In this document: positions 17,124 to 64,000 of the stretch, piece after piece
Layout of the letters: every line of letters starts with the position of its first letter
How positions within the stretch are numbered: position 1 is the first letter of the stretch
Source: Acidobacteriota bacterium
GTDB lineage: Bacteria; Acidobacteriota; Thermoanaerobaculia; Multivoradales; JBCCEF01
Direction of reading: 5' to 3'
NCBI GenBank assembly: GCA_039028635.1
Contig: JBCCHV010000004.1
Coordinates: 89,385-153,384 of the forward strand
DNA: 64,000 nucleotides
Made by a program: the position numbers and the translations under genes
Notes under the pieces: generated by a model
What the model was told of the DNA's origin: nothing
What the model saw: the letters and a program-made list of their open reading frames with translations, nothing else
Databases searched by the model: none

Positions 17124-17251
17124 GATTGGCCTCCTGGATGTTGGGCGGAGGACGAGCGAGATCTCGCTCGGACGGAAGGATTTGATAGCTGTGTAGCAAT
17201 ATCTTACCAGGCCTTTCCAAGGAGGTTGAACTTGCCTAGGGAGCGAGGCGG

Positions 17252-18265: not shown

Positions 18266-18500
18266 GGGGGCTCCTTCGGGATCGCGTCCGCTCGGCGGAT
18301 CTATTGGATCGGGAATCTGTCTCTTTCGGCGCAGCGCCGCATCGCCTGACCAGGCGACCACCGGTGAGCTGGAAGAGCAGAACGCTTTTGGGGACGGTCG
18401 TCGAGGCTGCCGGTGCGTTACTGGATACGATGCGCCGGAACTGGGCAGGGGGGTGGGGAACCCCCCTGGACGAAGCTACCTGCTGAGAGGGGCTCGGCGG

Positions 18501-48550: not shown

Positions 48551-50599
48551 TCAGAGCAATCGAGCGTGGTAGATGCGGTGGTGGTCGTTGGCGTTGATCC
48601 AGAAGATCCTCACTTGCCCCCCGAGGTTGGCCAAAGCCGGTGCGCACGCCGCGTGGTGCGGGTCGCCGTTGATCGGAGCGGGCTGCGACCAGCTCTCGAA
48701 GGGAGAGGAAGAGCGACTGTAGAGGATGCGACTGCCATCGCCGCGCTCCTTCCAGGCAACGAAGACTTCGCCATTCAGCTCGGTGACCGCCGGTGAGAAG
48801 TCCGACGAAGCGCCCGGGATGGTCTTGGGTGCTTGCCAGGTCTGAGTATTCCAGCTCGTGTACCAGAGCTCCCGCGTCGCGCTTTTCGAGTTGCCGAAGA
48901 CCAGGAGCTGAGTTCCGACGGGGATCGCAGCCGGTGTTTTCTCGCTGGCATAGGCGTCACCGATTCGCTGAGGCGTTCCCCAGGAGATGCCGCCATCCTC
49001 GGAGGTCTTGTAGCAGAGGCGGCGCTTGTCCTCATCTTCCACCCACAGCAGGATGCGGCCGGTCTTGATGCCATAGAAGCGGCTGAGAGCCGGTGATTCG
49101 GGCGTGGCGTTGCCTTGAATCTCGGAGTGCTTGCTCCAGGTCCAGCCCTTCATCTGGCTCCAGGTTCCGCGAGCTCCGTAGATTTCCGGCTGGTTCCATT
49201 CGTACCCGCGCCAGACGAGCTGCAGGCCTTCATTGTCGCTGAGCTTGTCCGGGAGCGCCGCCGAGTAGAGGTAGGTCAGGTAGTTGCGCCAGTCGCCTCC
49301 GCCGACGATCTCGGGAGCCTTCCAGGTTTCGCCCTGGTGTCGGCTGCTGAAGTAGATGCCGCCGCGGGCGTGCTCCGCTGTCCACAAGACCATGGACTCG
49401 GGACTCGGGGGGTCGAGATTGGGAGTGCCGTGGAAGTCGAAGGCGACCGGGGTTTGACGCGATTTGGCGTTGGGGTGGAGGGCTCGCCCACGACTGAAGT
49501 CCCCCGACCACAAGCAGCCGGAGTGGGCGTTCACGTGCGCCGCGATGCGGCTGATGTTGGGAGCCAGGAAGATGCGCTTGGTGCCGAAGGATGGGCACAT
49601 GATGATGGCGTCGGGCCCTTGGCAGTGCTCGGTGCCGACGTGCAGGGCGCCGAAGTTGTGCCCCAGCTCGTGAGAGACCAGGGCGACCAAGCCGTTCTGG
49701 CTTCCGAAGGGCAGAGCGGAAAGACCATAGGTCGGTGTCTTGCACACCGTGCCGGTGTCGGCGATGCCGGCGATGTTGCCGTCGAGCTCCTTGCCGCTGA
49801 ACAGATGGGTGAGGGCCCGTTCGGCGGTGATCTGGCCGCCGTAGGCACGCAATTGCCCCAGTAGCGTCGTGTCCTTGGTCGACTTGTAGGGCTGTGCGCT
49901 CGCCGACTTGTGGACGGCGAGGTGGGTGACCACGAGGCGCAGTCCGTGATGGCTTTCGAAGACGGCGCTGACCTCGTTGAGGACGCCCAGAATCTTGGCG
50001 CTCCAGTTGCTCTGATTTCGATTCCAGAACTCGAAGTCGGCCTCGATCGCGATCGGCACCGTAAAGGTCGGATTCATCGCTTCTGTCGGAGGGGTGTTCG
50101 GGACCGGCGAGACTTCGGTCGGATTGCCGCAGCTCGGCTCCGTTGGGTTCGGTGAGGAGATGAGATCCGAATCCCGATACAGCACCAAAAGGCTGTCATC
50201 AAGGCTCTCGCTGAAGGAGGCCGCAGGCTCGAAGAAGGTCGTTTCCCCGGGAGTCGCGATTCGTCCTTGCAAGAAGCCCGGGGCGATGACCAGCTGGACG
50301 CTGCTCTCGGGCTGGTGGGTGAGGTGACCGCGGTAGATGCCGATGCGCTCGAGCTCGCGGGCGGTTTCCACCGAGTCGGCGAGGTCGCCGTCCCAGATCG
50401 CATGAGGCTCGAGGGTGAGCTCGAGCTCGCGGTCTGCGATGCGCAGGACGACCGGTTCTCCTGCCGACAGGGCTCGGCGGAGAGCATCGACCTGCAGGTG
50501 GAACAACGTGAAGTGGGCGAGGTGCGGGGCGAGCGCGTCGCGCAGAGCGGTGGTGGGTTCGACGATATCGGCGGTGACAGGTGTCTGGTTCGTTGTCAT
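48551..50599 (-). CDS. metzincin zinc metalloprotease (reprolysin/M12B-like) fused to BNR/Asp-box-containing C-terminal region
   Basis: HELGHNFGALH zinc site followed by the Met-turn AIIMCP. The C-terminus has Asp-box-like SEDGGISWGT and Trp-rich repeats. GGGAGGAAGAG RBS before the ATG at 50597-50599. No obvious signal peptide. Confidence 0.65.
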   Translation of the reverse strand: MTTNQTPVTADIVEPTTALRDALAPHLAHFTLFHLQVDALRRALSAGEPVVLRIADRELELTLEPHAIWDGDLADSVETARELERIGIYRGHLTHQPESSVQLVIAPGFLQGRIATPGETTFFEPAASFSESLDDSLLVLYRDSDLISSPNPTEPSCGNPTEVSPVPNTPPTEAMNPTFTVPIAIEADFEFWNRNQSNWSAKILGVLNEVSAVFESHHGLRLVVTHLAVHKSASAQPYKSTKDTTLLGQLRAYGGQITAERALTHLFSGKELDGNIAGIADTGTVCKTPTYGLSALPFGSQNGLVALVSHELGHNFGALHVGTEHCQGPDAIIMCPSFGTKRIFLAPNISRIAAHVNAHSGCLWSGDFSRGRALHPNAKSRQTPVAFDFHGTPNLDPPSPESMVLWTAEHARGGIYFSSRHQGETWKAPEIVGGGDWRNYLTYLYSAALPDKLSDNEGLQLVWRGYEWNQPEIYGARGTWSQMKGWTWSKHSEIQGNATPESPALSRFYGIKTGRILLWVEDEDKRRLCYKTSEDGGISWGTPQRIGDAYASEKTPAAIPVGTQLLVFGNSKSATRELWYTSWNTQTWQAPKTIPGASSDFSPAVTELNGEVFVAWKERGDGSRILYSRSSSPFESWSQPAPINGDPHHAACAPALANLGGQVRIFWINANDHHRIYHARLL

Positions 50600-50895
50600 C
50601 TCTTCCTCCCGGAAGGCTTGAGAAGAAGCGACCGCAGGGCGAATACACGCTGGCTGTTCGCCGATCGCAGGGACGCTGGGTCCGTAGCCGGTCGACGCTC
50701 GTTGGGGGAAACCTGCCCCGGATCGCAGATTGGAATCTGCACCGGGTGTGTTCTCGGCGGAGAAACGTTTCAGCAGCTCAGGAGTCGAGCTGCTAGGGCG
50801 GTCCGCCTGTGTCCTACGGGTTGCTGAAGGGGCCATCGGCCGGGGCATCCCTCGATGGAGGTCCCGGCGGCCTCGAGGGGTACCTGCCTCCGGCG

Positions 50896-51285
50896 CTACT
50901 CCCAGGCTTCGGCGCCCTGGACGACCCGCGACTGGATCTGGGCGATCCTTTCGGCATGGGCCTTGATCGACGTGGCGTGGGGGCCTTGCCAGCTCTGGTC
51001 AACGGTTTCCCGGAAGAGCTCGATCCAGCGCCCGAACTGCTCGGCGCGGAAGGGCATCTGCTGCGACAGGACCGAGTGCTTCTGGGTCGGCGAGCCGTGG
51101 AACCCTGGAATGCGCAGCTCGACGGCGCACCAGAAGGCAGTCAGCTTGGTGATGTGCTCGTCCCAGTCGACTCCCGCTTGGTCGACGAAGACGGGGCCGA
51201 GCAGATCGTCCCGCTGGACCCGCTCGTAGAAGGCGCGGACGAAGGTCTCGAGACGTTCGGGGCTGTCGAGATCCGGTCGTGACAT
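50896..51285 (-). CDS. truncated-hemoglobin-like (globin family) protein
   Basis: 129 aa. FYERVQRDDLLGPVF ... LTAFWCAVE ... GSPTQKHSVL ... FGRWIELF resembles group II/III truncated globins. Confidence 0.5.
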   Translation of the reverse strand: MSRPDLDSPERLETFVRAFYERVQRDDLLGPVFVDQAGVDWDEHITKLTAFWCAVELRIPGFHGSPTQKHSVLSQQMPFRAEQFGRWIELFRETVDQSWQGPHATSIKAHAERIAQIQSRVVQGAEAWE

Positions 51286-51298
51286 AGGGTCCTCGCGG

Positions 51299-51482
51299 CT
51301 AGCCCGGCCTTCTCACGAGGTTTCCTGGCGAGAGGCCGTAGGTTCTTGAAGATGCAAGGCATCCGTCGCTGCCACGACGCAGCCGTACTCGATGTACTGC
51401 GAGGAGAGCAGGCGACGGATAACGCAGCAGATTCTGGGACATACGGACGCGCAGCGGAAAGCTCGTGAGAAGGGCGGGCTAG
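51299..51482 (-). mobile_element. MITE-like inverted-repeat element, family B copy 1 (inverted relative to copies 2 and 3)
   Basis: CTAGCCCGGCCTTCTCACGAG ... CTCGTGAGAAGGGCGGGCTAG, a 20-21 bp TIR. About 90% identical to 53481-53663 and 57839-58027. The terminal CTAG supplies the stop of the small membrane ORF. It sits in the promoter of the globin gene. Confidence 0.6.
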
Positions 51483-51862
51483 CTGGAGAGGGATTCGATC
51501 ACGATCGCGACCAGGACGAAGAGGATCGTCAGCAGGCCGCAGCCGTTGATGCCGCCGCCGAGGAAGGCCATCAGCTTCGGTTCTCGGGATGCGGCTCGGA
51601 TGCCATAGGAGGTGCCGAAGCCGAAGGGAATCGCCGACCCGAAGAAGATCAGCAGCACCAGGCCGGCGAGAGGGCCGGCGATCGATCGGTTGTCCGACAG
51701 TATGGCGATTGCGAAGCCGCCGAAAACGCAAATCCCCAGCAGCACCACCCAGGTGATCGATCCCAACAGCATCGACTTGACGCCCAGCGGAGATTCGCCC
51801 CGGGCCGACGAGGGCGGATTCGGAGTTGCCCCCTCGGAAGGAGGATCTGGAGTATTGGTCAT
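51479..51862 (-). CDS. hypothetical small membrane protein
   Basis: 127 aa from MTNTPDPPSEG, with a Pro-rich N-terminus and three hydrophobic helices. The longer ORF extension is non-coding repeat sequence. Confidence 0.45.
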   Translation of the reverse strand: MTNTPDPPSEGATPNPPSSARGESPLGVKSMLLGSITWVVLLGICVFGGFAIAILSDNRSIAGPLAGLVLLIFFGSAIPFGFGTSYGIRAASREPKLMAFLGGGINGCGLLTILFVLVAIVIESLSS

Positions 51863-52167
51863 TCTTTGACCTCGACGACCTCTCGGTGGTTGGGGACCGG
51901 AGCGTTTAGTCCGGGCCTTGTTCTCAACTCTCTCATGGGAAGGCGCAGGCTTGAAGGTTCGGTGGCGGTCAATGCTAGAGTTCAAGGCGGCGGCCGCGCT
52001 GAGCGCCCAACTCCTGCAGGCCTCTCGCCCCGAGGCCTCTCGTCGGAGCAAAGGGGAGCCCGGACTTCTCCAGCGCCAAGTGTCTGACGATCTCTAGGTT
52101 TCAGACCATGAGCTCAGTGGAAGGGGGCGACTTCTGTTGTGCTCATGGGACCAGAGGATGAGATGTC

Positions 52168-53463
52168 ATGACACAGCAGTCAAGCTTCAAAGCTCGTGTG
52201 CGCGCTCGGATGTCTAAGACCGGAGAGCGCTACGCTGCAGCGCGCCTCGCCCTGCTCAAGAACGCCAGCTCCAACGCCGATTCTCCAGCCGCCGAAGCGG
52301 TACCGCCAGGGACCATTCTCACGGACCTCGGGGCCCTGGCGATGGCGCTCCAAGCCGCCGGTATCGTCGACCCTGCCACCGGGGCTCCGTTCTCCGAGAC
52401 TCGCCTCTTCGGACTCTCCGGTGGCCCTGGCTTCATGAGCTTTGTTTTTCAGTACCAGAACGTTGCTCCGATCCTGACCATCACCTGTCGGAGCTTTTCT
52501 CTTCCGGGGCCGGTCGTCGATCGGGCACTGGAGCATGCCGGGATCAACCCGGATCGCTTCGAGAGCGGGAGCACCAGCAAGAGCCGCCGAGCTCTCGACC
52601 AGGTTCTGGAGCAATCTCGCGTCGCCCATCTCGCCGTCGATCAAGCGCGATTGCCGTGGCTCGGGTTGGATCCGATCTGGCAGGGGCAGTGGCCGCGTCA
52701 CGTCAATGTCTCCAAGGTCGGCGACGCCTTTCGAGTTCAGGACCAGGCGCAGTGGACGCTCAGCGAGGAGCAGCTCGCGGCGGCTCGAGCCGGCATCAAA
52801 AAGGCCAAGCATCGAATGCTGTCCTTTGGTGACACCACGGTGGGCGATCCCGTGGCGGCGACGCGCCAAGCGCTCGAGTTCTACGTCAGCAATCAAAGAA
52901 CCGCACCCTACGCCAACTTCAAAAACAACTTCGGGCTCAAGGGCTTGGCCCGTACCGCCCAAGCGATGGGCGACCTGACCACCAAGAAGGGCTGGCTGCG
53001 AACCTTCGACAGCGGACCCTATGCCTTTGCTGCCCTTTGGCGCCTGTGGGAGTGTCTCACCGTGGAGCTGACGGCGCCGGCCGCTGGCCGGCCTCTGTTC
53101 GCGGACTTTCTCGAGCAGGCGAGCGAGCTTCCCGGCTGTCCCGATCTTCGATCGGCCGCTGAGCTGGCGCGGGCCAGCGGCGAGGCGTTCGAAGATCTGG
53201 TCGATCTCGCCGTGGCGGCCGGAGGCGGGCCGCTCGGCCAAGCCATCGAGTGGACCGAGGCCATCGACGAGGCACTGCGCTCCGGTGCTCCCGACACTCC
53301 CGAGACCGTTCGCGAGCTGCGCGCCCGTCGCGCTGCGCTGGCGGCGCAATGCACCCTCGACGAAGCGTCTCGTCGTGAAGTGTTCACCGCCCTTGCCGCT
53401 CAGATGAATCGGATCCTCGATCGCGAGACGGCTCTGGTCGAAGCGCTCGAGCGCAAGCCCTGA
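52168..53463 (+). CDS. hypothetical protein (possibly BtrH_N/DUF4872-like; unverified)
   Basis: 431 aa with good GC3 bias. The family assignment is only a weak recollection. Flanked by inverted family-B repeats. Confidence 0.45.
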   Translation: MTQQSSFKARVRARMSKTGERYAAARLALLKNASSNADSPAAEAVPPGTILTDLGALAMALQAAGIVDPATGAPFSETRLFGLSGGPGFMSFVFQYQNVAPILTITCRSFSLPGPVVDRALEHAGINPDRFESGSTSKSRRALDQVLEQSRVAHLAVDQARLPWLGLDPIWQGQWPRHVNVSKVGDAFRVQDQAQWTLSEEQLAAARAGIKKAKHRMLSFGDTTVGDPVAATRQALEFYVSNQRTAPYANFKNNFGLKGLARTAQAMGDLTTKKGWLRTFDSGPYAFAALWRLWECLTVELTAPAAGRPLFADFLEQASELPGCPDLRSAAELARASGEAFEDLVDLAVAAGGGPLGQAIEWTEAIDEALRSGAPDTPETVRELRARRAALAAQCTLDEASRREVFTALAAQMNRILDRETALVEALERKP

Positions 53464-53480
53464 GGCGTTCCCCGGAGGAT

Positions 53481-53663
53481 TAGCCCGTCCTTCTCACGAG
53501 CTTTCCGCTGCGCGTCCGTATGTCCTCGAATCTGCTGCGTTATCCGTCGTCTGCTCTCCTCGCAGTACGTCGAGTACGGCGGCGTCGTGGCAGCGCCGGA
53601 TGCCTTGCATCTTCAAGAACCTACGGCCTCTCGCGAGGAAACCTCGGGAGAAGGCCGGGTTAG
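53481..53663 (+). mobile_element. MITE-like inverted-repeat element, family B copy 2
   Basis: TAGCCCGTCCTTCTCACGAGC ... ACCTCGGGAGAAGGCCGGGTTAG. Has the internal hairpin CCGTCG..CGACGG. Confidence 0.6.
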
Positions 53664-53775
53664 GAATCCCCGGGGTTCGGGGAAACCCTCACCCGTCGGC
53701 GGCCTTGGCGGCCTTGGCGACCTCGGTGGGTGAGGGCTCTCTCCGCGCCGGGCGCAGGGTCTTTGCTCGCAGCCC

Positions 53776-54324
53776 TTAGTCGTCTGGTTGTCCGACGAGC
53801 AGGGCGGCGAATCCGGGGAAGAAGGCGAAGGCCCAATAGGCGGCGCGGAGAAGGTAGTTGACCGGCTCGGCGGAAGGGTTGGTCCAGATCCCGGAGATCG
53901 CCCAGAACGCCAGGCCCGAGAGGCCGGCGGCGATCGCCCCGCGGGTCAGGGCGCGGCCGCGGCTCTCGCGGCCACCCCGAGCTCGGCGCAGGAGCGTGGC
54001 GAGGGTCAGCCACATGGCGATCCAGGTGATCAGCAGGCCGCCGAGATAGCCCACGACCATCGCGATCGGATAGAAGGCGGCGGCAATCAGCAGGCCGCCG
54101 ATGGGCAGCGTCTTCAGCAGGCTGCGGGTCGCACCGGCGACTCCCGAGGCTCGGCCGAGGACCAGGGCGAGAATCAGGAAGATCAGGACGCCGTGAACGA
54201 TGCCGGGGACCACCGCACCGTCTGGGATGAAGCTCGCCCACAGCCAATCGCCGAAGGACGACACCACGCCGAGGATCAGCGCCGTGACCACTGCCCGAGC
54301 GATTCCTGGACCGAGAGCGCTCAT
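53776..54324 (-). CDS. hypothetical integral membrane protein
   Basis: 182 aa with 5-6 TM helices. Divergent from the kinase gene. Confidence 0.45.
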   Translation of the reverse strand: MSALGPGIARAVVTALILGVVSSFGDWLWASFIPDGAVVPGIVHGVLIFLILALVLGRASGVAGATRSLLKTLPIGGLLIAAAFYPIAMVVGYLGGLLITWIAMWLTLATLLRRARGGRESRGRALTRGAIAAGLSGLAFWAISGIWTNPSAEPVNYLLRAAYWAFAFFPGFAALLVGQPDD

Positions 54325-54558
54325 CGGTTCCTCTCCGTGTGGTCGAGGTCGAGGCAGGGATCAGGCAACCGCGATGGCCTCGGCTTCTACCTGCGGTCGA
54401 ATCTGCGGTCGCAGGCCGCTCTCGGTGACCAAGGCGAGGTGCTGGTGGAGGAGGTGAAGTGCTTCGTCGCTGTTCATCGCTCGAAGTCTATCGCCACCTC
54501 GGCATGCCCTCCCAGGAACGCTAAAACGCGCCATCTCGATGGTACCTTCGTCTCTACC

Positions 54559-57225
54559 GTGAGCTCCGAACCGACCCAGGACCTCGAACAGGAACGCCGA
54601 GTCTTCGCTCTACTCGCCGAGGTCGGCGAGTTGGGTCCGGAGGAGCGGGAGCGTGCTCTCGACGAGTGCGACGATCCGGCCTTGGCGACCGTTGTGCGTC
54701 GGATGCTCTCCGCCCACGGCTCGATCAGCGGCTTCCTCGACACGCCCGCACCGGCGGCTTTTCCGCCGACCTGGGTCGGCAAGTCGATCGGACCCTACGA
54801 GGTCCTCGAGCTGCTCGGCGAAGGCGGCATGGGGATGGTCTTCCGTGCCGCCCAGACCGAGCCGGTGCAGCGCGAAGTGGCGCTCAAGATCTTGCGCCTG
54901 ACCCGGCTCAGTCAAGAGGTGAAGGTTCGCTTTGAGGCCGAACGGCAAGCGATGGCCCGCCTCGACCATCCCAACATCGGTCGCATCCTCGAAGCCGGCA
55001 CGACCGAGAACGGGCTGCCCTACTTCGCGATGGAGTTGATCGATGGGGACAAGATCACCACTTACTGCGATCAGGCCGAGCTGCCCATCGAGGAGCGTCT
55101 GCGGCTCTTCCGCGACGTTTGCCGAGGCACCCACCACGCTCACCTGAAGCTGCTGCTCCACCGCGACATCAAGCCGTCCAATGTTTTGGTGACGGAGTTC
55201 GATGGCAGGCCGATTCCGAAGCTGATCGACTTCGGCATCGCCAAAGGGCTGGACGAGCCACTGGCCGCCGCCACCATGGCGACCGGCGACCGCTTCCTCG
55301 GGACACCGGCCTACATGAGTCCGGAAGCCCTCGAGTCCGGCCGCGACGTCGACGCACGCTCGGACGTCTTCGGCCTCGGCGTTCTGCTTTACCGGCTGCT
55401 CACCGGAACTCTGCCGTGGCCGGCTCCGGAGAACGATCCGCTGCAGATGATGAAGCAGCGGTTGGAGCGCGACGCCGACCGTCCGTCGACCCAAATCACC
55501 AGCCTCGAATCCGATCGCCGTGCCCAGATCGCGAGCCGGCGCAGCCTCGATCCACAGAAGCTGGCGCAGAAGCTGCGCGGCGATCTCGACAGCATCGTGA
55601 TGAAGGCGATCGAGCAGGACCCCGGTCGGCGCTACGCTTCGGCCGCCGAGCTGGCCGATGACATCGAGCGCCACCTGGCCGACGAGCCGATCCGTGCCCG
55701 CCCGCTCACCGGGCGGCTGCTGCTCAGCAAGCTGGTGCGTCGACACCGCACCGTGGTGGTCGCCGCCGTTGCGGTTCTGCTGGCCCTGGTCCTCGGCGCG
55801 GTCGGCACCGTCGCCGGTCTGCTTCAGGCCCGCGAGGCGGAGCGCAGGGCCGTCGCCGAGGCCGAGGCGGCGGTCGACGCCCGCGACCAAGCCGACGAGG
55901 TCTCCCGATTCCTGGTCGGGCTCTTCCGGCGGTCGAGCACCCATTCGCCGAACGCCGACAAAGCACCCGGCGAAACGACCGCCCTCGAGCTGGTTGCCCG
56001 TGGTGCCGAGCTGAGTGAGAAGGACCTCCAGAATCGCCCGGTGGTGCGCGCCCGGATCGCTCACGAGGTGGGCAAGATCTACAAGAACCTGGGAGAGTTT
56101 GACCAAGCGCGCAGCTCTTTCCGGTCGAGCATCGCCACGCAGGAGACCCTCGACCCTCGCCCCTTGACCCTCATCGCGGGCAACTACCTCGAGCTGGCTC
56201 AGATCGAGCACCGGCTCGCCAACTGGACCGAATCGAAAGAGCTGCTGGACCAGACCCTCGCTCTCGTCGCGGATTTGACTTCCTCGCCGGCCATTTCGCT
56301 GCGCGGCAACGCACTGAACCTGCTGAGCCGCCTGCGCCGTGCCGAGGGTGACTACGAAGGCGCCGAACAGGCGATCCAGGAAGCGATCCGGATTTACGAG
56401 CTGCAGGACGACGGAGGCCGAGACATCGCCTGGGGGCGGGCGACCCTGGGCACCGTCTACTTCTCCCGGCAACGCTGGGCCGACGCTGAGAATCAGTGGC
56501 GGCAGGCGATCGAGCTGCTCGAGCCGGTGCTCGACCAGGGAAATCCGATCCTCACCCAGCTCTACAACAACCTGGGCGCCGCCATCGCCAGCCAAGACCG
56601 CCTCGAGGACGCCGCACCGATGTTCGAACGGGCGGAGCACCACCAGCGCGCCCGCCTCGGTGACGAGCATCACGAGCTGGCCGATACGCTGAACAACCTG
56701 GGGGTTTTGAATCAACAGCTCGAGCGCCTCGAGCGCGCCGAGGCCATCCACCGCAAGGCGCTCGCGATCCGCGAACGGGCCCTCGGTGCCGACCACCCGA
56801 AGACCGCCTGGAGTCTCGACAACCTGGCCCGCACGGTCGAAGATCTGGGACGCCCCGACGAGGCCCGCTCGCTGCAAGAGCGCGCCCTGAAGATTCGCGA
56901 GAAGAAGCTGGGCGCGGAGCATCTCGACCTTGCCCGCAGCCTCGGCCACCTTTCCCGGCTGCTGGTGCTGGACGGCGAGCACCGCCTGGCCGTCCGCTAC
57001 GCCGACCGCGCCTATCGCATCCGGGTCACCCAGCTCGACCCGGGCCATCGCGAGATCGGCTTGAGCGCCGTCGATCTCGGCGCAGCCCTTTGGCACCTGG
57101 AGCGGCGCGACGAGGCGCGGCAACGGTTCGAGGAAGCGAGCAAGCTCTTTGCAGCCGGAGGCGAGTCGATGCAAGACGAAATCGCAGAGACGAAGGAGCG
57201 ACTCGCCGCGCTCGGTATTTCTTGA
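54559..57225 (+). CDS. Ser/Thr protein kinase with C-terminal TPR repeats
   Basis: Hanks kinase motifs GEGGMGMVF, VALK, HRDIKPSNVLV, DFGIAK and GTPAYMSPE. A TM helix follows the kinase domain, then about 450 aa of TPR_10/12-type repeats. The start (GTG 54559) is uncertain. Confidence 0.8.
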   Translation: MSSEPTQDLEQERRVFALLAEVGELGPEERERALDECDDPALATVVRRMLSAHGSISGFLDTPAPAAFPPTWVGKSIGPYEVLELLGEGGMGMVFRAAQTEPVQREVALKILRLTRLSQEVKVRFEAERQAMARLDHPNIGRILEAGTTENGLPYFAMELIDGDKITTYCDQAELPIEERLRLFRDVCRGTHHAHLKLLLHRDIKPSNVLVTEFDGRPIPKLIDFGIAKGLDEPLAAATMATGDRFLGTPAYMSPEALESGRDVDARSDVFGLGVLLYRLLTGTLPWPAPENDPLQMMKQRLERDADRPSTQITSLESDRRAQIASRRSLDPQKLAQKLRGDLDSIVMKAIEQDPGRRYASAAELADDIERHLADEPIRARPLTGRLLLSKLVRRHRTVVVAAVAVLLALVLGAVGTVAGLLQAREAERRAVAEAEAAVDARDQADEVSRFLVGLFRRSSTHSPNADKAPGETTALELVARGAELSEKDLQNRPVVRARIAHEVGKIYKNLGEFDQARSSFRSSIATQETLDPRPLTLIAGNYLELAQIEHRLANWTESKELLDQTLALVADLTSSPAISLRGNALNLLSRLRRAEGDYEGAEQAIQEAIRIYELQDDGGRDIAWGRATLGTVYFSRQRWADAENQWRQAIELLEPVLDQGNPILTQLYNNLGAAIASQDRLEDAAPMFERAEHHQRARLGDEHHELADTLNNLGVLNQQLERLERAEAIHRKALAIRERALGADHPKTAWSLDNLARTVEDLGRPDEARSLQERALKIREKKLGAEHLDLARSLGHLSRLLVLDGEHRLAVRYADRAYRIRVTQLDPGHREIGLSAVDLGAALWHLERRDEARQRFEEASKLFAAGGESMQDEIAETKERLAALGIS

Positions 57226-57247
57226 TCGCTGCTATTCTCGCCGCTCG

Positions 57248-57841
57248 ATGGCTGACGAAACTCCCGATCTACCGGAGGTTACCGAGCTGCTCTCGCGCTG
57301 GCGGGTCGGTGAAGAAACCGATCTCGAGGCCATGGTCCCGCAGATCTACGACGAGCTGCGCAGCCTGGCCAATCGCTACATTCGGCGCGGCGGCTCTGCC
57401 CAGACACTGCAACCCACGGAGCTGGTGAACGAGGCCTTCGTGCGACTGATGGGCTCGACGGTGAGCACCAATGATCGTCTGCATTTCCTGGCCCTCACTG
57501 CCCGCGTCATGCGCAGCGTCCTGGTCGACCGTTTCCGCCGGCGCGACGCGGCGAAGCGCGGCAGCAATCCGACGCCGGTGACGCTGGCTTCCAGCTTCGC
57601 CGAGCGGCAGCAGAGCTCGATCGACCTCCTCGATCTCCACCGCGCTCTGGAGCGCTTCGGCTCGGTCTCGCCACGAGCCGCGCAGATCGTCGAGCTGCGC
57701 TTCTTCGCCGGCTTGACCAATGAGGAAGTCGCAGAAGTCCTGGGGGTCTCGCTGGCCACCGTGGCTCGGGAATGGCGGGCCGCCCGGGTTTGGCTGGCCA
57801 ACGCCCTCGAGACGCCGCCGGGAGCGTCGTTACGACAGTAG
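57248..57841 (+). CDS. ECF-type sigma factor, TIGR02999-like (kinase-associated subgroup)
   Basis: N-terminal VTELLSRWRVGEETDLEAMVPQIYDELRSLANRYIRR...TLQPTELVNEAFVRL is diagnostic of the Sig-70_X6 family. Region 4 IVELRFFAGLTNEEVAEVLGVSLATVAREW. Lies 23 nt downstream of the kinase. Confidence 0.8.
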   Translation: MADETPDLPEVTELLSRWRVGEETDLEAMVPQIYDELRSLANRYIRRGGSAQTLQPTELVNEAFVRLMGSTVSTNDRLHFLALTARVMRSVLVDRFRRRDAAKRGSNPTPVTLASSFAERQQSSIDLLDLHRALERFGSVSPRAAQIVELRFFAGLTNEEVAEVLGVSLATVAREWRAARVWLANALETPPGASLRQ

Positions 57842-58027
57842 CCCTCGCCCGTCCTTCTCACCAGCTTTCCGCTGCGAGTCCGTAGGTCCCCGAATCTGCT
57901 GCGTTATCCGTCGCTTGCTCTCCTCGCAGTACGTCGAGTACGGCAGCGTCGTGGCAGCGACGGATGCCTTGCATCTTCAAGAATCTACGGCCTCTCGCCA
58001 GGAAACCTCGTGAGAAGGGCGGGCTAG
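57839..58027 (+). mobile_element. MITE-like inverted-repeat element, family B copy 3
   Basis: Exactly fills the gap between convergent genes. The left TAG is the sigma stop codon and the right CTAG contains the amine oxidase stop. Confidence 0.6.
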
Positions 58028-59217
58028 AACGTTCGGGAGGTGCTCTCCAGGACTTGATCCACGGCCTCGAACCCGGAGAGGGCGGCGCCGTGCACGGTGG
58101 CCCAGCTTTCGGCGTAGGTCTCGCCGGCGAAGAAGACCTTGCCTTCGAGCGGCGAGCGGAGGATGGCCCGGGTTGCCGCGTCGGTATCGAAGGTGTAGGA
58201 ACCTCGGATGAAGGGTTCTTTCGACCAGTTCTGTACGACGTGTTTCACATGGTGCTTGGAGGCTGCGCCGCCGAAGATGCGATCGAGCTCGTCCAGCGCG
58301 AGGTCGACAGTCTCTTGGTCGGTCGCGGCCGTTGCGTAGGGTCTCGCAGGGTCCCCAACGGTGAACAGACCGAGGATGTTCCTCGAGCTGTCCTTCTTGA
58401 AAGCCGCGTCGTAGTAGATCTTCTCGCCCCAGCCCTGGATCTTATTGGGTCCGCCTTGGAGGAGGTCGGGGTAGAACCGCTCCCGGAATTCGAAGAACAA
58501 CTTCAGGCCATCCGGCATCGAGAGGCGGTTCAACGCCGCGACTTTCTCCCCGGGCAGCTCGGGAGTGAACTGAATCTCCGCTTCTTTCAGGACCGTCAAG
58601 GGGACTGTGACGATGATGCGATCGGCTTTGTGAGTCGTGCCGTCTTGCGTGATCACCTGGACTCGGCGGCCCGAAACGTCGATGGCCCGGACCGGGCTGT
58701 CGAGACGAATGCGGCCCTGGATTCTGGACGCCAGGTGTTTTTCGAAGAAGCCGAACCAGGTTGTCCGCTTGAACTTGTGCTCCGCATAGACGAGTGAAGC
58801 GAGGCGGTTCTTGCGGATCCGGCCGCCCTTCCAGGTCGAGATCCAAGGGTTGTACTTGACGACCTCGAACTTGCGACCAGCCTCTGGATCGTGCGCCAAC
58901 TCTTCCAGAATCGAAGGCGCGGTGTGAATCCACTCTGCGCCGAGGTCGATGGGGAAGTCAGCGAAGTCGGAGATCCGCTTCATGCGGCCGCCGATACGAG
59001 AGGAGGCCTCGAGGATCTCGAATTCGACGCCGCGGCGCTCGAGGGCGAAGCCGGCGGCGAGTCCCGCGGCCCCGGCGCCGATCACCAGCACCTTGAAGTC
59101 CAAGGCAGGCGTGACGCTTCTTCGCCCCGCAGCTTCCTGAGGTTGAATCCTCAGAGCAAGCTGCTGAAGGCCGAGAATGGCGCCTGCTGCGCCGCGGAGG
59201 AAGGTCCTGCGATCCAT
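58024..59217 (-). CDS. flavin-containing amine oxidase (Tat-secreted)
   Basis: Tat motif MDRRTFLRGAAGA. FAD Rossmann VLVIGAGAAGLAAGFAL..EILEASSRIGGR. C-terminal amine-oxidase block (FFAGETY). Confidence 0.75.
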   Translation of the reverse strand: MDRRTFLRGAAGAILGLQQLALRIQPQEAAGRRSVTPALDFKVLVIGAGAAGLAAGFALERRGVEFEILEASSRIGGRMKRISDFADFPIDLGAEWIHTAPSILEELAHDPEAGRKFEVVKYNPWISTWKGGRIRKNRLASLVYAEHKFKRTTWFGFFEKHLASRIQGRIRLDSPVRAIDVSGRRVQVITQDGTTHKADRIIVTVPLTVLKEAEIQFTPELPGEKVAALNRLSMPDGLKLFFEFRERFYPDLLQGGPNKIQGWGEKIYYDAAFKKDSSRNILGLFTVGDPARPYATAATDQETVDLALDELDRIFGGAASKHHVKHVVQNWSKEPFIRGSYTFDTDAATRAILRSPLEGKVFFAGETYAESWATVHGAALSGFEAVDQVLESTSRTF

Positions 59218-59437
59218 CAGGACAGAGTATAGCGACGGAGCCCTAGACGGTCGTCTCTCTCGAGTACAAGCCCATCTTCGTTTCGGAGGCGTCCCTGCGC
59301 GGCCCCTCTACGGCAGCCTCTCAGGGCAGCGGAGGAGGCGCCGAATCAAGACGCGGGGCGATTGGCTCGAATCTGCGGGCTACCTCATCCGCTCAGTTGC
59401 GCCTTTCGGCCAGTTTTGGTGTTGCCTCCCTCGTCCG

Positions 59438-59827
59438 CTACCAGGCCTCGACTTGAAGAGATTCGACCTGAGCGAAGTGGCGATCACGAGTCGCCAGGAT
59501 CAGATCGTGTTGCCGGGCACAGGCTGCAATCCAGATATCGTTCTCAGGAATCGGCCGCCCCTGCTGTTGGAGATGCGCCTTAAGCGTCCCGTACTGCTGA
59601 GCAGTCGCGATGTCCTGTGGCATCACCGGACAGACCTCTACCAGCCCTTCGATCCGGCGACGGTTGGCCTCGGGACGAGCTGACTTCGCAGCCCCAAAGA
59701 GCAATTCACCGACGACCATGAGGCAGAGAAAAGACTTGATCCCGAGACCGCGGCGGGCTTCAAGATCAACGTCCTGATTGAGCACACGTATGGCGACGTT
59801 GGTATCGAGCAGGTACCTACCACTCAT
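59438..59827 (-). CDS. vapC: type II toxin VapC (PIN-domain ribonuclease)
   Basis: 129 aa starting MSGRYLLDTNVAIRVLN. PIN acidic residues (D at LLDTN, E in GELLFGA, D in ILATRD). Confidence 0.75.
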   Translation of the reverse strand: MSGRYLLDTNVAIRVLNQDVDLEARRGLGIKSFLCLMVVGELLFGAAKSARPEANRRRIEGLVEVCPVMPQDIATAQQYGTLKAHLQQQGRPIPENDIWIAACARQHDLILATRDRHFAQVESLQVEAW

Positions 59828-60068
59828 CGGCGTCGACCCGCCACCCATCCGCGTCAACCTGCTCGCATCCCTCTTCGATTGCTTCCATCATCTCGCGCGC
59901 CGATTTGTCGTCAAGAGTGCCGGCAACCTTCATCAGATCCTCGACCGAGGCTCCCTGAAGGCTGGACCTGGCCAGATCGTGGACCAGCGCGGCGGCCCGC
60001 TCCTGTTGCTTGGGCGAGAGCCGGTCCAGGTCACTAAGAATCTGCTCCTTGATCGTTGGTACCACCAT
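59817..60068 (-). CDS. type II antitoxin (VapB-like) of VapC
   Basis: 83-aa acidic protein. The 11-nt overlap with the vapC start is the classic TA operon layout. Confidence 0.55.
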   Translation of the reverse strand: MVVPTIKEQILSDLDRLSPKQQERAAALVHDLARSSLQGASVEDLMKVAGTLDDKSAREMMEAIEEGCEQVDADGWRVDADEW

Positions 60069-60432
60069 AGTGCCACCTCCTTTGCGCTCCGGTGCGCGGT
60101 CCGATTCTATCCGGCAGCCTAAGGAGGCGGTGAGATCGCCCCTGCCTCTTCGGCAAGAGCCAGGAGATACCTCATAGCGACCTCCCTACCGTTGGCCTCG
60201 GTGGTATCCGATTGAAGAGGTGCCCCAACGACCCGCCTTCCTATGCTCGGTGGACCGAGTTGGAGTTGGCAGGTCGGGCGGTCCTGTAGGATGTCCGCAA
60301 TACATCTTGAGCGAATTCTTGAAATCATGCTCTGGCTTCCACCTCTGGGCAGGAAATTCTAGCTTGGACACTTCTCCTTGGTTGCTTTGGGGAGGCTTGG
60401 GCAGCACACGGCCAACGAAGAGGAGGCAGACA

Positions 60433-61695
60433 TTGGCAAGGCGGGGATTCTTTGCAGAGATTAGCCACCAAGTGCGACAGGCGGAAAAGGCAAGAGCAAG
60501 GGCGGAGCGAGAGGAGGAGCGAGCTAGGAAGGCGGCTATCCGTGATCTTGAAAGAGCCCGGAAGAAGTCCGAGCGCCTTAGGCAGCAAGCTGTAAGAGCC
60601 CACGCTGCTGAGAAGAAGAGGCTCGAAAAAGAGGCTCGTGCTGCTCACTTCGCCGCTAGACAAGCCGAGGTCGACAAGCAGAACAGCGAGCTTGAGCAGC
60701 AGTTCCAAGAGATTGAATCCCTATTAGCAGCCACGCTTGATGTAGATGATTATGTAGACTTGGACTCTCTCCGGAAGAAGGCCGAGCACCCGGCGTTTGG
60801 CCACCCGGATCTTGAGGTACCCATCCAGCCACCCGAACCACCTTCTGAGTCGCCAGAGCCAGTGTTCATTGAACCAAGGGCACCGAAGGGGCTTGCGGCG
60901 CTTTTTGGCCGGAAGAAGGCAGCGAGAGCGGTTGCGGCAGCCAATGAAGCTCATGTGGAAGCCGTCACTGCCTGGCGCTCCAAAGTAGAAGAGCTCAAAG
61001 CCCTTCACAAGGCTGAGTTGAGGGGCGCCGCAGAGCGCGAGGAGAAGCGATTAGAGCGGCTCAAGGCTGAGAGAGGGAAGTATGAGAAAGAGTGCGCCGA
61101 GCGTGAAAAGGCCGTTGCCGAACACAACTCTAGGCTAGATACCTTCATAACCAATCTTGGCTACGGAACTGCCGAAGCGATTCAAGAGTACGTGTCCATC
61201 GTGCTGGCGAACTCTGTCTACCCTCCGGTATTTCCTGTCGATCACGACTTTGACTTCGACCCAAATAGCGCCGAGCTCCGGTTGCGGGTTGTCGTTCCGC
61301 CCCCCGAAGCAATGCCGACCGTCAAGGCCTACCGATACGTCAAATCCAAAGACGAAATCATGGCAACGTCCCTTTCCCAGAAAGCGTCCAAAGAGAGGTA
61401 CGAAAGTGCCATCCATCAAGTGGCGCTTCGGTCGGTGCATGAGGTGTTCGAAGCCGACCGCCGGGGGCTCATTAGGACCATCTCCATGGAACTGGGCACA
61501 GAGACTGTCAGACCAGCAACGGGGCGGATGGACTACTTCCCATTCGTCGCCTTGGCAACTGACCGAGATCAGTTCCTTGAGCTGAACCTATCGGCCGTCG
61601 TGCCAACCGCCAGCCTTGAGCATCTTGGTGCGGTGATATCCAAGAATCCCTTTGGGCTAGTTACGGTTGATGCATCAGGGGTCCGTCAGGCATGA
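60433..61695 (+). CDS. hypothetical coiled-coil protein (component A of candidate two-gene defence module)
   Basis: TTG start 6 nt after a GAGGAGG RBS. About 200 aa of Lys/Arg/Glu-rich coiled coil (AEKARARAEREEERARKAAIRDLERARKK...), then a roughly 200-aa globular C-terminal domain (VDHDFDFD ... YESAIHQVALRSVHEVF). No P-loop. About 58% GC. Confidence 0.55.
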   Translation: MARRGFFAEISHQVRQAEKARARAEREEERARKAAIRDLERARKKSERLRQQAVRAHAAEKKRLEKEARAAHFAARQAEVDKQNSELEQQFQEIESLLAATLDVDDYVDLDSLRKKAEHPAFGHPDLEVPIQPPEPPSESPEPVFIEPRAPKGLAALFGRKKAARAVAAANEAHVEAVTAWRSKVEELKALHKAELRGAAEREEKRLERLKAERGKYEKECAEREKAVAEHNSRLDTFITNLGYGTAEAIQEYVSIVLANSVYPPVFPVDHDFDFDPNSAELRLRVVVPPPEAMPTVKAYRYVKSKDEIMATSLSQKASKERYESAIHQVALRSVHEVFEADRRGLIRTISMELGTETVRPATGRMDYFPFVALATDRDQFLELNLSAVVPTASLEHLGAVISKNPFGLVTVDASGVRQA

Positions 61696-63044
61696 CCGAT
61701 GACTCGGCTATCTTCAATCCCCCTCCTGGCTGGCCAAAACCGCCAGAGGGCTGGAAGCCGCCACCTGGCTGGTCACCGGACCCCGCCTGGCCTGCGCCGC
61801 CCGAGGGCTGGGAACTGTGGCTTCCGGCAACTGCCGAGGACGGGAAGCAAGATGAGGCTGAGTCGACTTCTCCTGCCAAGTTGCCCAGGGGGAACTCGGA
61901 AGCGAGACAGGCCGACAGCGCTTCGGTGGACCGGGTCGCACAGCTCGAAGCGGAGAACGCGGCACTACGCGCACGCCTAGACTCTGATCCTCTAGAGGAC
62001 GATGCCATCACCCTGAGCGACGAGGCGGTGCTCCAAGAGGTGGGCATCTACCAATACCACCACCCGCTGGAAAGCGCGGTTGCTTACAAGGAAACCCTGA
62101 AGAAGCTGTCGAGTCGAATCGCAGATCAAGTGCGCTTCAGAAGCGCGATCGAGGTCTCGAGCCGATTCACCTTCAACAACTCGCTCGCGCAGGGGCGCAG
62201 GCTGTCCTCGAACCTCTCTCGACTGATGCTTCGCGCTTACAACGCTGAGGTAGACAATTGTCTTCGCTCGCTGAGAGCTGGAAACGTAGTTACCGCGAAG
62301 AAGAGAGTCGAGGCTTCTCGCAGGGCGATCAGAAAGCTCGGCAGCATTATGGAGATGCAGATTAGCCCCGGGTACCACGCGCTACGACTTGAGGAGATCG
62401 AGCTCACAGCGGACTACCTGATCAAGAAGAAGGAAGAGAGGCTCGCGGCCCGAGAGGAGCGGGCCCGCCTCCGGGAGGAACGACGGGTCGAGGCCGAGTT
62501 GGCGGCGGAGCGCGAGCGGCTAGAGAAAGAACGCAGCCACCTCCTGAACGCCCTGGCAACTCTTCGGGCGGGCGGCTCTTCGGATGAGGACCTGGAGAGC
62601 AAACTAAGCGAAGTCGAGGTGGCGATTGAGCACAATGACTACCGGGCGGCCAACATCCGAGCAGGCTACGTGTATGTCATATCTAATCGTGGCTCTTTTG
62701 GGAGAGGAGTCGTCAAGATAGGGCTTACTCGCCGCCTGCAGCCGCTAGTGCGCGTTTCCGAGCTTAGCGGGGCCTCGGTGCCTTTTCGGTTTGATGTGCA
62801 TGGACTCTTCTTCTCAGAGGATGCAGTCTCCCTCGAGGCCGAATTGCACGAGGAATTTGCGCCGCGCCGTGTGAACCTCGCGAATAGCCGTAAGGAATTT
62901 TTCTTTGCGAGCCCGTCGGAGGTCCAAGAGGCCTTGGTGTCGAAAGTTGGAAGCTTGCTGGAATTCAAAGAGGAGGCTGAGGCGACCGAGTACTGGCAAA
63001 GCCTGCACCACTGGCCAGAGGACCACAGAAGCCGCAATCAATAG
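61692..63044 (+). CDS. DUF4041 + T5orf172 (GIY-YIG-like nuclease) domain protein (component B)
   Basis: ATGA overlap with gene A. N-terminal PxGW tandem repeats. DUF4041-like helical region with RLAAREERARLREERR. C-terminal T5orf172/MUG113 motif GYVYVISNRGSFGRGVVKIGLTRR...R..EL....PF.FDVH..F.SEDA..LE..LH..F...RVN......EFFFASP. Confidence 0.65.
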   Translation: MTDDSAIFNPPPGWPKPPEGWKPPPGWSPDPAWPAPPEGWELWLPATAEDGKQDEAESTSPAKLPRGNSEARQADSASVDRVAQLEAENAALRARLDSDPLEDDAITLSDEAVLQEVGIYQYHHPLESAVAYKETLKKLSSRIADQVRFRSAIEVSSRFTFNNSLAQGRRLSSNLSRLMLRAYNAEVDNCLRSLRAGNVVTAKKRVEASRRAIRKLGSIMEMQISPGYHALRLEEIELTADYLIKKKEERLAAREERARLREERRVEAELAAERERLEKERSHLLNALATLRAGGSSDEDLESKLSEVEVAIEHNDYRAANIRAGYVYVISNRGSFGRGVVKIGLTRRLQPLVRVSELSGASVPFRFDVHGLFFSEDAVSLEAELHEEFAPRRVNLANSRKEFFFASPSEVQEALVSKVGSLLEFKEEAEATEYWQSLHHWPEDHRSRNQ

Positions 63045-63248
63045 GTTCGGAAGAGCGATGAGAACCTCGCCGTAGCTAGGGAGGGGTGTAGCGCTGCGCT
63101 CGACGCTCATGCTTTAGGTGCCGGCGTAGTCACAGTTCCACCCTCCTCCCTGACTCTTCAGCCTCAACTTGAATCAGCAGGGCTGGCTGCCTGGTCCGAT
63201 GAGCCAGAGGTTTGCCCCGGTTCTCGAAAGCCCACTGGTCCAGCGATC

Positions 63249-63616
63249 GTGCCTCTCCCGTCACCGGTGATCTCCTTCCTTGCTGACCTTCGCAAAGAGC
63301 GTCGCTCCGAGGTCTGGGTCGTCGCCAACAAGGCCGGGAATCGAGAAAGACACCTCCTCGAGATTTTCAAGATCGTCTGCCGGCGAGCCAAGATCACCCC
63401 TCAGGCAGCGATGCTTTATGCGCTCCGTCGTTCCTTCGGGACCCACCTGCGAGGGCAGGGGTTCGCCTGGCTGACATCGCTGGTCTCAGGGGGCAAAGCG
63501 ACCTGGCAACCACCAAGATCTACGCTAGCCTACCTCCCTCCGATTTCGGCGGCGCTGTTACGCAAAATGACGCCGTTGGTGGGTGGCTCTGGCGAGCCGT
63601 CACACAAACCTGCTGA
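63249..63616 (+). pseudogene. tyrosine recombinase/integrase remnant (C-terminal catalytic part only, frameshifted)
   Basis: One frame gives the R...HxxR box (LYALRRSFGTHLRGQG). The conserved LATTKIYASLPPS tail with the catalytic Tyr is in a different frame, so there is a frameshift near 63470. The N-terminal two thirds are absent. Confidence 0.5.
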
Positions 63617-63689
63617 AGAGAGCGAGTCGACTCGCTTGATCGAGCCTAAACCATCGCTAATAAGAGGCTTGGAGAGTGGTATCGAGAAG

Positions 63690-63763
63690 TGGCTGGGACG
63701 CAGGGAGTCGAACCCCGATTCTACGGTCCAGAGCCGCATGTCTTGCCATTAGACGACGTCCCA
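63690..63763 (-). tRNA. tRNA-Gln (anticodon CUG)
   Basis: Reverse complement: TGGGACGTCGTCTAATGGCAAGACATGCGGCTCTGGACCGTAGAATCGGGGTTCGACTCCCTGCGTCCCAGCCA. 7-bp acceptor stem, GTCT/AGAC D stem, anticodon loop CTCTGGA, T-loop TTCGACT, encoded CCA. Confidence 0.8.
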
Positions 63764-63874
63764 AGCGGACGAGAGGGTAACCGATTCGGCGCTTCTCGGT
63801 CAAGCCGTGAGCGGGGCACGAAGGTTGCCGCAAAGGCCAGCGCTGTTGGGCGTTTTGGCCTTCTGATCGGGACC

Positions 63875-64000
63875 TACTCGCTGGTCGGTGCGATCTCGGC
63901 GAGGTAGGCGATGAAGTGGTCGAGCCGTTGGCGCGTCGCCGGGCGACCGACGAGGGCGACGAGGTCGAAGACCGGCGGGCCCTTCTTGCTGGCGGAGAGC
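63875..64000 (-). CDS. 3' end of an unidentified gene (partial, continues beyond window)
   Basis: The minus-strand frame reads ...LSASKKGPPVFDLVALVGRPATRQRLDHFIAYLAEIAPTSE* with a strong GC3 bias. GC returns to about 70% here. Confidence 0.35.

Follow-up and report, generated by a model that had tools for sequence, protein, structure and literature searches.

Results

The window, a 64-kb stretch of DNA from an acidobacterial contig, holds three copies of one repeat, which a repeat search places at 51299-51482, 53481-53663 and 57844-58027, matching the number claimed in the initial annotation. The copies are clustered within 6.7 kb and the other 57 kb of the window is without a copy. The neighbouring genes encode a globin-like protein on the minus strand (50896-51285), a membrane protein, a DUF4872/BtrH_N protein, an ECF sigma factor and an amine oxidase. 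Copy 1 lies between two cistrons and copies 2 and 3 lie between convergent genes, and the three insertion contexts are unrelated to one another. The earlier globin-like call for ORF 50896-51285 is sound given its match to the group III truncated haemoglobin 2ig3 (E=5.9e-12). The features of the repeat are as follows.

51299..51302, no strand: left duplication of copy 1, CTAG, with the ATG of the truncated-haemoglobin-like gene 13 nt downstream
51303..51478, minus strand: core of copy 1, CCCG...CGGG, in the opposite orientation to copies 2 and 3 (nhmmer E=4e-57)
51479..51482, no strand: right duplication of copy 1, CTAG; 51479-51481 is the TAG that closes the minus-strand membrane ORF 51479-52051
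53480..53483, no strand: left duplication of copy 2, TTAG, 16 nt past the TGA that ends the DUF4872/BtrH_N gene 52168-53463
53484..53659, plus strand: 176-nt core of copy 2 (repeat alignment)
53660..53663, no strand: right duplication of copy 2, TTAG, a direct repeat of the left TTAG
57844..57847, no strand: left duplication of copy 3, degenerate CTCG, one change from CTAG; the repeat arm starts at 57844
57848..58023, plus strand: 176-nt core of copy 3 (repeat alignment)
58024..58027, no strand: right duplication of copy 3, CTAG; 58024-58026 is the TAG that closes the minus-strand amine oxidase gene 58024-59217

The core of the element is 176 nt, begins with CCCG and finishes with CGGG, and pairwise identity among the three cores is 94.9, 94.3 and 93.2%. 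It is bounded by a 17-bp terminal inverted repeat, CCCGnCCTTCTCACGAG, which all six ends in the window match with zero or one mismatch; in copy 1 the two terminal repeats read CCCGGCCTTCTCACGAG and CCCGCCCTTCTCACGAG. The repeat first described as about 185 bp long, about 90% identical and bounded by 20-bp ends is real, but its dimensions are corrected by these values. The 17-mer end occurs six times against 1.1 expected and an interior 22-mer has three exact occurrences against none expected. Alignment agrees that copy 1 is inverted relative to the other two. Copy 3 had been taken to start at 57839 and to fill the convergent gap exactly, with the ECF sigma stop as its left end. Its homology begins only at 57844/57848, which leaves that TAG stop (57839-57841) outside the element, 2 nt to the left of the duplication. 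An alignment with a 5-nt insertion, in which copy 3 would end at the ECF sigma TAG, was rejected in favour of the simpler CTCG flank. On the right side of copy 3 the amine oxidase stop does fall within the CTAG, as had been stated.

The element is short compared with the MITE limit of about 600 bp, and its sole open frame is a 61-codon read-through that has no homologue in the databases. ORFs such as MPCIFKNLRPLARKPREK result from reading through this single frame, which accounts for the six-frame ORFs previously ascribed to the repeats. On the minus strand a 195-aa ORF that closes within the right-hand TTAG of copy 2 was rejected as non-coding, its third-position G+C being 0.57.

The CTAG at the boundaries had been regarded as the end sequence of the element. 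The flank pairs in the window are CTAG/CTAG for copy 1, TTAG/TTAG for copy 2 and CTCG/CTAG for copy 3, and since the TTAG of copy 2 is direct on both sides the 4 nt are duplicated target rather than part of an inverted repeat. Elements elsewhere with the same ends have the matched flanks GTAG/GTAG, CCAG/CCAG and CTCG/CTCG, and flanks are identical in 17 of the 25 elements compared. Matched flanks that are not palindromic mean that the duplication is 4 bp and not TA. The empty sites can be reconstructed as GGTCCTCGCGGCTAGCTGGAGAGGG for copy 1, CCCCGGAGGATTAGGAATCCCCGGGG for copy 2 and GACAGTAGCCCTAGAACGTTCGGG for copy 3.

The element did not bring stop codons with it but inserted at CTAG sites that already held TAG. 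The stop of the membrane ORF does lie in the CTAG flanking copy 1, but the TAG belonged to the target site and was not supplied by the repeat as first thought. A gene retains its stop because one duplicated CTAG remains attached to it, and a TAG within the duplication also closes a PMT-family glycosyltransferase gene at locus L006. Before insertion, 13 nt including a GAGGA separated the stop of the membrane ORF from the globin ATG, and this ribosome-binding site still stands between the left duplication of copy 1 and the ATG of the globin-like gene. From its sequence, the site looks more like an intercistronic junction than the globin promoter in which copy 1 had been placed. Copy 2, for its part, landed inside the loop of a pre-existing intergenic hairpin.

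The ends of the repeat have in common with IS1380-family elements the motif CCCG-n3-TTCTCAC-(n)-AG. In the Bryobacterales sequence OZ245359.1 a 1721-bp IS (positions 3677-5397 of locus L079), present in at least nine places, is bounded by the same end motif and CTAG/CTAG. Its 467-aa product matches Pfam PF13701 (E=6e-139) and the NCBIfam model NF033539 'IS1380 family transposase' (375 bits, cut-off 180). Annotated IS1380-family elements on pRle248a of R. leguminosarum, pKF715A of P. putida and a Stutzerimonas megaplasmid have the form CTAG|CCCGCATTTCTCACAG...CTGTGAGAAATGCGGG|CTAG. The CTAG-duplicating branch of the family is like the window element in terminal motif, 4-bp flanking duplication and strong CTAG preference. 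The ends of the window element begin with CC and fit the IS1380-family terminal repeat, and its 4-bp duplication is within the 4-5 bp of the family; a table lists a 5-bp target duplication for the family member IS1247 (PMC3281130). The differences are that IS1380 elements are 1.6-1.8 kb long and carry a DDE transposase (PF13701/NF033539) whereas the window element is 176 bp and gene-free, and that the ends are common to both over some 17 nt while the subterminal sequence is not. Given so short an overlap, none of the full-length elements is the direct parent. By tblastn neither the element nor the rest of the 64-kb window has an IS1380-family transposase, so the element derives from or depends on the family rather than being an IS1380 element itself. 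The transposase-bearing relative with the same terminal repeat envisaged at the outset is to be found among IS1380 elements of other genomes but not in the window. In a Halobacillus locus (L025) two TIR-like sequences lie 1842 nt from each other, but they were set aside as a probable chance match, as one arm has two mismatches, the flanks (AGCT/CGGC) disagree and tblastn found no transposase.

Related non-autonomous elements are found elsewhere. The MAG CALKVK01 (SRR6227243_bin.30) has MITE families of 233 nt and 325 nt in at least 14 loci, with the same 17-bp ends, 4-bp duplications and full-length palindrome as the window family. Their interiors are unrelated to it and the genome is 73-77% G+C. 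The same ends around unrelated interiors show that non-autonomous elements arise repeatedly from these ends. The Acidobacteriota MAG JBCCLG01 carries a 176-nt element (L045), the only relative of the window family among the matches listed, which is 69% identical throughout and has the same length, ends and full-length palindrome, with flanks CGAA/CTAA. An nhmmer family profile run on the window and 156 loci found no diverged or partial copies beyond these four (three in the window and L045). An invariant interior 20-mer gave three matches in JGI metagenome contigs, all of them 20-21-nt chance matches. A scan of IMG/VR with the end motif and an interior 18-mer gave chance matches only and no transposase, and a search of 5.8 billion proteins with the MITE read-through ORF found no wrongly annotated ORFs covering further copies. 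Among the genes next to the repeats, the DUF4872 gene and the amine oxidase were tried; their nearest orthologues (78%, 73% and 68% identity) are in loci that are not syntenic and carry no copy, and no empty site emerged from them.

Discussion

Our results support a model in which the repeats of the window are a non-autonomous IS1380-type MITE with a preference for the rare target CTAG, a reading that we hold with a probability of roughly 0.8. It is supported by the terminal inverted repeats, the 4-bp duplications, the three unrelated contexts and the ends common to transposase-encoding IS1380 elements. Of the MITE-like element first proposed, the non-autonomous transposon is upheld, while CTAG as its end, the supply of stop codons and the promoter siting are not. 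On the strength of sequence comparison, the 17-bp ends are probably the binding and cleavage ends for one branch of IS1380-family DDE transposases. The transposase of a full-length IS1380-type element at another site in the cell would recognise both ends and mobilise the MITE in trans, and the source genome would encode a matching transposase or have done so formerly. Insertion would proceed by a staggered cut at a 4-bp target, the repair of which doubles the 4 bp; CTAG would be preferred and one-base variants tolerated. The window has 40 CTAG sites where 99 +/- 9 would be expected, and the tetranucleotide is rare because the genome is about 67% G+C. Many of the harmless CTAG sites would overlap TAG stops or sit in short intergenic spacers, and the copies would come to abut stop codons because tolerable sites so often coincide with these. 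Any effect of the MITE on neighbouring genes is inferred. Given the 5-7% divergence and one decayed duplication, transposition of the family may have ceased.

The whole MITE is an imperfect palindrome, of which the CCGTCGC..GCGACGG hairpin, previously held to be common to all copies, is just the tip; it is intact in copies 1 and 3 but mutated in copy 2. In a read-through transcript the palindrome is predicted to fold into a hairpin at about -80 to -95 kcal/mol, and the z-scores relative to shuffles are -3.6 and -5.8. The L045 element keeps this fold with nine pairs altered on both sides yet still paired; of the 62 predicted pairs, about 19 are disrupted in one or more of the four sequences. 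The full-length hairpin might be selected rather than a by-product, either because a hairpin or cruciform is needed for transposition or because it has been co-opted as an RNA-level insulator or terminator between packed genes, but we consider this unlikely. The observations behind the idea are the 69%-identical families with the same 176-nt fold, the gene-end siting and the position of copy 2 in a hairpin loop.

A rival reading would make the repeat mainly a selected structural or regulatory palindrome, REP/BIME- or ERIC-like or a structured RNA, acting as terminator, insulator or mRNA stabiliser, with its transposon traits secondary. The stable full-length hairpin, the doubly changed pairs of L045 and the siting of all three copies at gene 3' ends or between cistrons would fit. 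However, an Rfam 15 scan of both strands of 50000-60000 at up to E=1 returned nothing, and scans for sigma-70 promoters and intrinsic terminators found no consensus and no T-tract in the copies. The orientation to adjacent genes also varies, and the ends and duplications fit a known transposase family. The covariation comes from a single comparison in one lineage and is offset by the broken pairs, and palindromy is in general frequent in MITEs with no shown function. Taken together these points make a mainly regulatory palindrome improbable.

It is more doubtful still that copies 1 and 2 are the ends of a composite transposon that moved some 2 kb, the membrane ORF and the DUF4872/BtrH_N gene, as a unit. 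The two arms of 183 nt are 95% complementary with 1999 nt between them, and the nearest relatives of the enclosed 431-aa gene (78% and 73% identity) are in wholly different neighbourhoods. Such a unit would, however, be expected to have equal outer flanks, which are CTAG and TTAG instead. Copies 1 and 2 are flanked by matched duplications of their own, CTAG/CTAG and TTAG/TTAG, which indicates two independent insertions, and the membrane ORF and globin-like gene look like an operon junction split by copy 1. Classical IS630 elements target CTAG, and IS5 elements target YTAR with a 4-bp duplication. A MITE of one of these superfamilies, either IS630/Tc1-mariner type (CTAG target, TA duplication) or IS5-group (4-bp YTAR), is very improbable even though the CTAG and TTAG flanks are compatible with YTAR, since a TA duplication fails for CCAG/CCAG, CTCG/CTCG, GTAG/GTAG and TTAG/TTAG, elements with these ends have an IS1380-family transposase by both Pfam and NCBIfam, and IS5 and IS630 ends are not known to resemble the 17-bp end.

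The IS1380-type MITE can be compared with several known systems. Correia/NEMIS in Neisseria, ERIC/IRU in enterobacteria and RUP in pneumococci are the classical palindromic MITEs. They too are 100-200 bp long, non-coding and multi-copy, with inverted ends, long hairpins and gene-end siting, but have other ends, other duplications (TA in Correia and RUP) and other or unknown transposases. To our knowledge no classical palindromic MITE family of this set has been tied to IS1380. REP/BIME sequences, which RAYT transposases mobilise, are palindromes of 20-40 nt that carry a GTAG or CGTC tag and lack a target duplication (PMC3733652). The 176-nt window element with its 17-bp terminal repeats and 4-bp duplications does not fit this description. 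According to PMC5718144, piggyBac is the counterpart of IS1380-like transposases in eukaryotes. MITEs derived from piggyBac likewise duplicate a 4-bp palindromic target, TTAA as opposed to CTAG here, and differ in domain of life, target sequence and ends. Cut-and-paste with precise excision is a piggyBac feature that we do not carry over to the IS1380 elements.

The window element is an ordinary, though seemingly undescribed, miniature transposon; the literature searched held no description of MITEs of the IS1380 family. It opens no new mechanism. What is gained is that an acidobacterial repeat can be cleanly assigned to a transposase family, together with an account of stop-codon adjacency that calls for no special function, with a CTAG-seeking element having few landing sites in a G+C-rich genome. 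The copies also flag spurious ORFs and gene-boundary errors near them. More widely, CTAG|CCCGnnnTTCTCACnAG provides a diagnostic motif for IS1380-type MITEs in other genomes, and piggyBac-derived MITEs gain a prokaryotic parallel.

Boundaries of the repeat family

A repeat search of the window recovered arms at 51299-51482, 53481-53663 and 57844-58027, so the three stretches named in the initial annotation are genuine repeats, with copy 1 oriented opposite to copies 2 and 3. An interior 22-mer occurs exactly three times in the window against none expected, and the 17-mer end CCCGKCCTTCTCACGAG six times against 1.1 expected, each match carrying at most one mismatch where up to three were permitted. 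An nhmmer profile of the family found no extra copy, whole or decayed, elsewhere in the 64 kb. The element is 176 nt long, limited by CCCG...CGGG, and the cores share pairwise identities of 94.9, 94.3 and 93.2%:

51303-51478 (-), copy 1; flanks CTAG left, CTAG right
53484-53659 (+), copy 2; flanks TTAG left, TTAG right, a direct pair
57848-58023 (+), copy 3; flanks CTCG left, CTAG right

The four bases outside the core are not an inverted repeat. The TTAG pair of copy 2 is direct and can therefore only be a duplication, which turns the CTAG originally read as the ends of the element into duplicated target. Matched, non-palindromic flanks exclude both CTAG as element sequence and a TA duplication of the IS630 type. 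One A-to-C change in the left duplication of copy 3 accounts for its CTCG. The left end of this copy had been set at 57839, taking the TAG of the ECF sigma gene as its first bases, an alignment that would require a 5-nt insertion. The ungapped repeat, which begins at 57844, is preferred, and the sigma stop (57839-57841) therefore lies 2 nt outside the element. The reconstructed pre-insertion junction of the convergent genes is TAGCCCTAG.

One reading frame of the element is open along its full length, and the spurious ORFs flagged earlier are readings through it. The copies diverge by 5-7% and the copy 3 duplication has decayed, which points to insertions of some age. Searches of JGI metagenome contigs, IMG/VR and miscalled proteins turned up no further copy of this exact family. 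Copies 1 and 2 lie inverted on either side of a 2-kb segment, and the gene enclosed there has homologues in unrelated contexts, as might be expected of a composite transposon; each copy, however, carries its own matched duplication, which favours two separate insertions and makes a composite very unlikely.

Elsewhere in the window, 14440-18400 holds four tandem paralogous ORFs of ~250-300 aa at a spacing of ~840 nt, none with a Pfam match:

14686-15483 (-), tandem paralogous ORF
15533-16291 (-), tandem paralogous ORF
16318-17220 (-), tandem paralogous ORF
17507-18361 (-), tandem paralogous ORF

The run is flanked at 14494-14573 and 17434-17513 by a conserved motif of ~60 nt, GCCCTCTCGGGCCCGG.AGCAGG.TGC.GA.G.GTTTTTCAGT..CCTG.TAG.

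Origin of the ends

The call of a MITE was borne out, with its boundaries and stop-codon account corrected. Judged by sequence, the ends are assigned to the CTAG-duplicating branch of the IS1380 family. One genome per species was scanned for the end motif CCCGNCCTTCTCACGAG and at least 120 stretches matched (stored as 8-kb blocks, L-numbers). Among the matches listed, most are lone chance matches within genes, and three groups stood apart. The matches listed include at least nine 8-kb blocks of the Bryobacterales chromosome OZ245359.1 and one block of a second Bryobacterales MAG; all those listed have CTAG ahead of the end motif and identical sequence after it, and are copies of a 1721-bp element, CTAG-CCCGACCTTCTCACGAG ... 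CTGGTGAGAAATCCGGG-CTAG. Its 467-aa protein matches Pfam DDE_Tnp_1_4 (PF13701, E=6e-139) and NCBIfam NF033539 'IS1380 family transposase' (375 bits, cut-off 180). The copies (L004, L031, L046, L079, L084, L100, L108, L113 and L116 of OZ245359.1, and L111) are nearly identical, with 93-100% transposase protein identity, so the element is probably active. The L046 copy measures 1778 bp, and several Bryobacterales blocks also carry pieces of a second IS1380 transposase, 55-70% identical.

In the MAG CALKVK01 (G+C 73-77%), at least 14 blocks (L006-L008, L015-L017, L035, L037, L040, L042, L051, L075, L083, L094) carry 233- and 325-nt elements with the same ends and unrelated interiors, flanked by CTAG/CTAG, GTAG/GTAG, CCAG/CCAG, CTCG/CTCG and some pairs with at least one difference. 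L042 holds a 118-nt deletion derivative. In an Acidobacteriota MAG (L045), an element of 176 nt matches the window family at 69% identity along its entire length. The stored CALKVK01 MITE blocks showed no transposase, and the 64-kb window no IS1380-family transposase. In the gammaproteobacterium Vreelandella andesensis (NZ_RZHG01000019.1; L021, 7469-8000), CTAG precedes an exact CCCGACCTTCTCACGAG adjoined by A+T-rich sequence; the stored block stops 530 nt past the match, and an IS or a MITE would both fit.

The IS1380 link extends beyond Bryobacterales. When annotated plasmids were searched with the Bryobacterales transposase, R. leguminosarum pRle248a, P. putida pKF715A and a Stutzerimonas megaplasmid proved to carry elements labelled 'IS1380 family transposase', whose ends are CTAG-CCCGCATTTCTCACAG ... 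CTGTGAGAAATGCGGG-CTAG or closely similar. In a set of 25 elements, the 50 ends hardly vary at positions 1-4 (CCCG) and 8-14 (TTCTCAC); flanks are identical over 4 bp in 17 of the 25, and the flank consensus C-T-A-G is held by 44, 44, 41 and 47 of 50. The 4-bp YTAR-like flanks would also agree with an IS5-type origin, but the ends appear to disagree and every transposase found adjoining them is of the IS1380 family; such an origin, like an IS630/Tc1-mariner one, is very unlikely.

The piggyBac transposon duplicates a 4-bp palindromic target, and the 4-bp duplication shared by the window MITE is therefore unsurprising. Among prokaryotes, the counterparts of piggyBac are the IS1380-like transposases (PMC5718144). 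No description of IS1380-derived MITEs was found in the literature searched, coverage of which was incomplete; the window MITE is a fresh example of a well-known element type, and the assignment to IS1380-type ends is made here.

Predicted hairpin structure

Every copy is predicted, on both strands, to form a single hairpin across the whole element, at -78 to -96 kcal/mol; for copy 2 the z-scores are -3.6 and -5.8. The L045 relative is predicted to adopt this fold too, nine pairs being changed on both sides with pairing kept in this single comparison; of the 62 predicted pairs, about 19 fail in one or more of the four sequences, 16 of these being broken in L045. Given one comparison and this many broken pairs, we regard selection on the fold as no more than possible. 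Rfam gave no family match to the MITE, and no promoter or terminator consensus was found within the copies. Once copy 2 and one TTAG are deleted from the sequence, the site (53470-53483 + 53664-53675) reads CCCCGGAGGATTAGGAATCCCCGGGG, an 11-bp hairpin (6 + 5 bp, 1-nt bulge) with the TTAG target in its loop; copy 2 would thus have inserted in the loop of a pre-existing intergenic hairpin between convergent genes.

Gene context and stop codons

Copy 1 lies between the small membrane ORF and a gene related to group III truncated haemoglobin (2ig3, E=5.9e-12). Its removal in silico leaves 13 nt from the ORF stop to the globin-like ATG, with GAGGA between, so that the site, previously taken as the promoter of the globin-like gene, looks like an operon junction. 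The copy 1 hairpin now terminates 8 nt ahead of this GAGGA ribosome-binding site. Copy 2 is 16 nt past the DUF4872/BtrH_N gene. Codon-position G+C favours as its 3' neighbour a minus-strand 182-aa ORF (53776-54324; third-position G+C 0.85; no Pfam match) over the long N-terminal extension of a kinase ORF, and copy 2 therefore also sits between convergent genes. The third-position signal of 0.84-0.92 in 53800-54250 belongs to the minus-strand ORF; the 1145-aa kinase/TPR ORF (53788-57225, +) has its kinase domain from residue 337 and its N-terminus was probably called too long. Copy 3 separates the ECF sigma gene from the amine oxidase gene. For the genes flanking the copies, the closest orthologues have different neighbourhoods and reveal no empty site.

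G+C drops from ~0.67-0.70 to 0.62-0.64 at 48-52 kb and to 0.58-0.62 past 58 kb, the second drop (58000-64000) beginning beside copy 3. The best amine oxidase homologues are at most 55% identical save one 68% match, and most of those with a named source (<=55%) are from Bacteroidota; this low-G+C segment may have been horizontally acquired.

The right duplication of copy 1 contains the stop of the membrane ORF, and the stop of a PMT-family glycosyltransferase lies within the GTAG duplication of one CALKVK01 MITE. Copy 3 had been described as exactly filling the gap between its neighbours: its right CTAG does hold the amine oxidase stop, and the description fails only on the sigma side. The element had also been credited with supplying stop codons; since the duplicated targets hold the genes' own stops, it instead lands on existing ones, and duplication leaves each gene its own. 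Not all insertions are at natural stops: in Bryobacterales block L108 an FAD-dependent oxidoreductase gene appears to be split at CTAG by an IS1380-family copy, only its N-terminal part (4662-5336; FAD_binding_3 profile 3-172 of 349) preceding the IS. CTAG is depleted in the window (40 sites against 99 +/- 9 in shuffles). In a genome of ~67% G+C, a TAG stop preceded by C would be one of the few harmless locations for CTAG.
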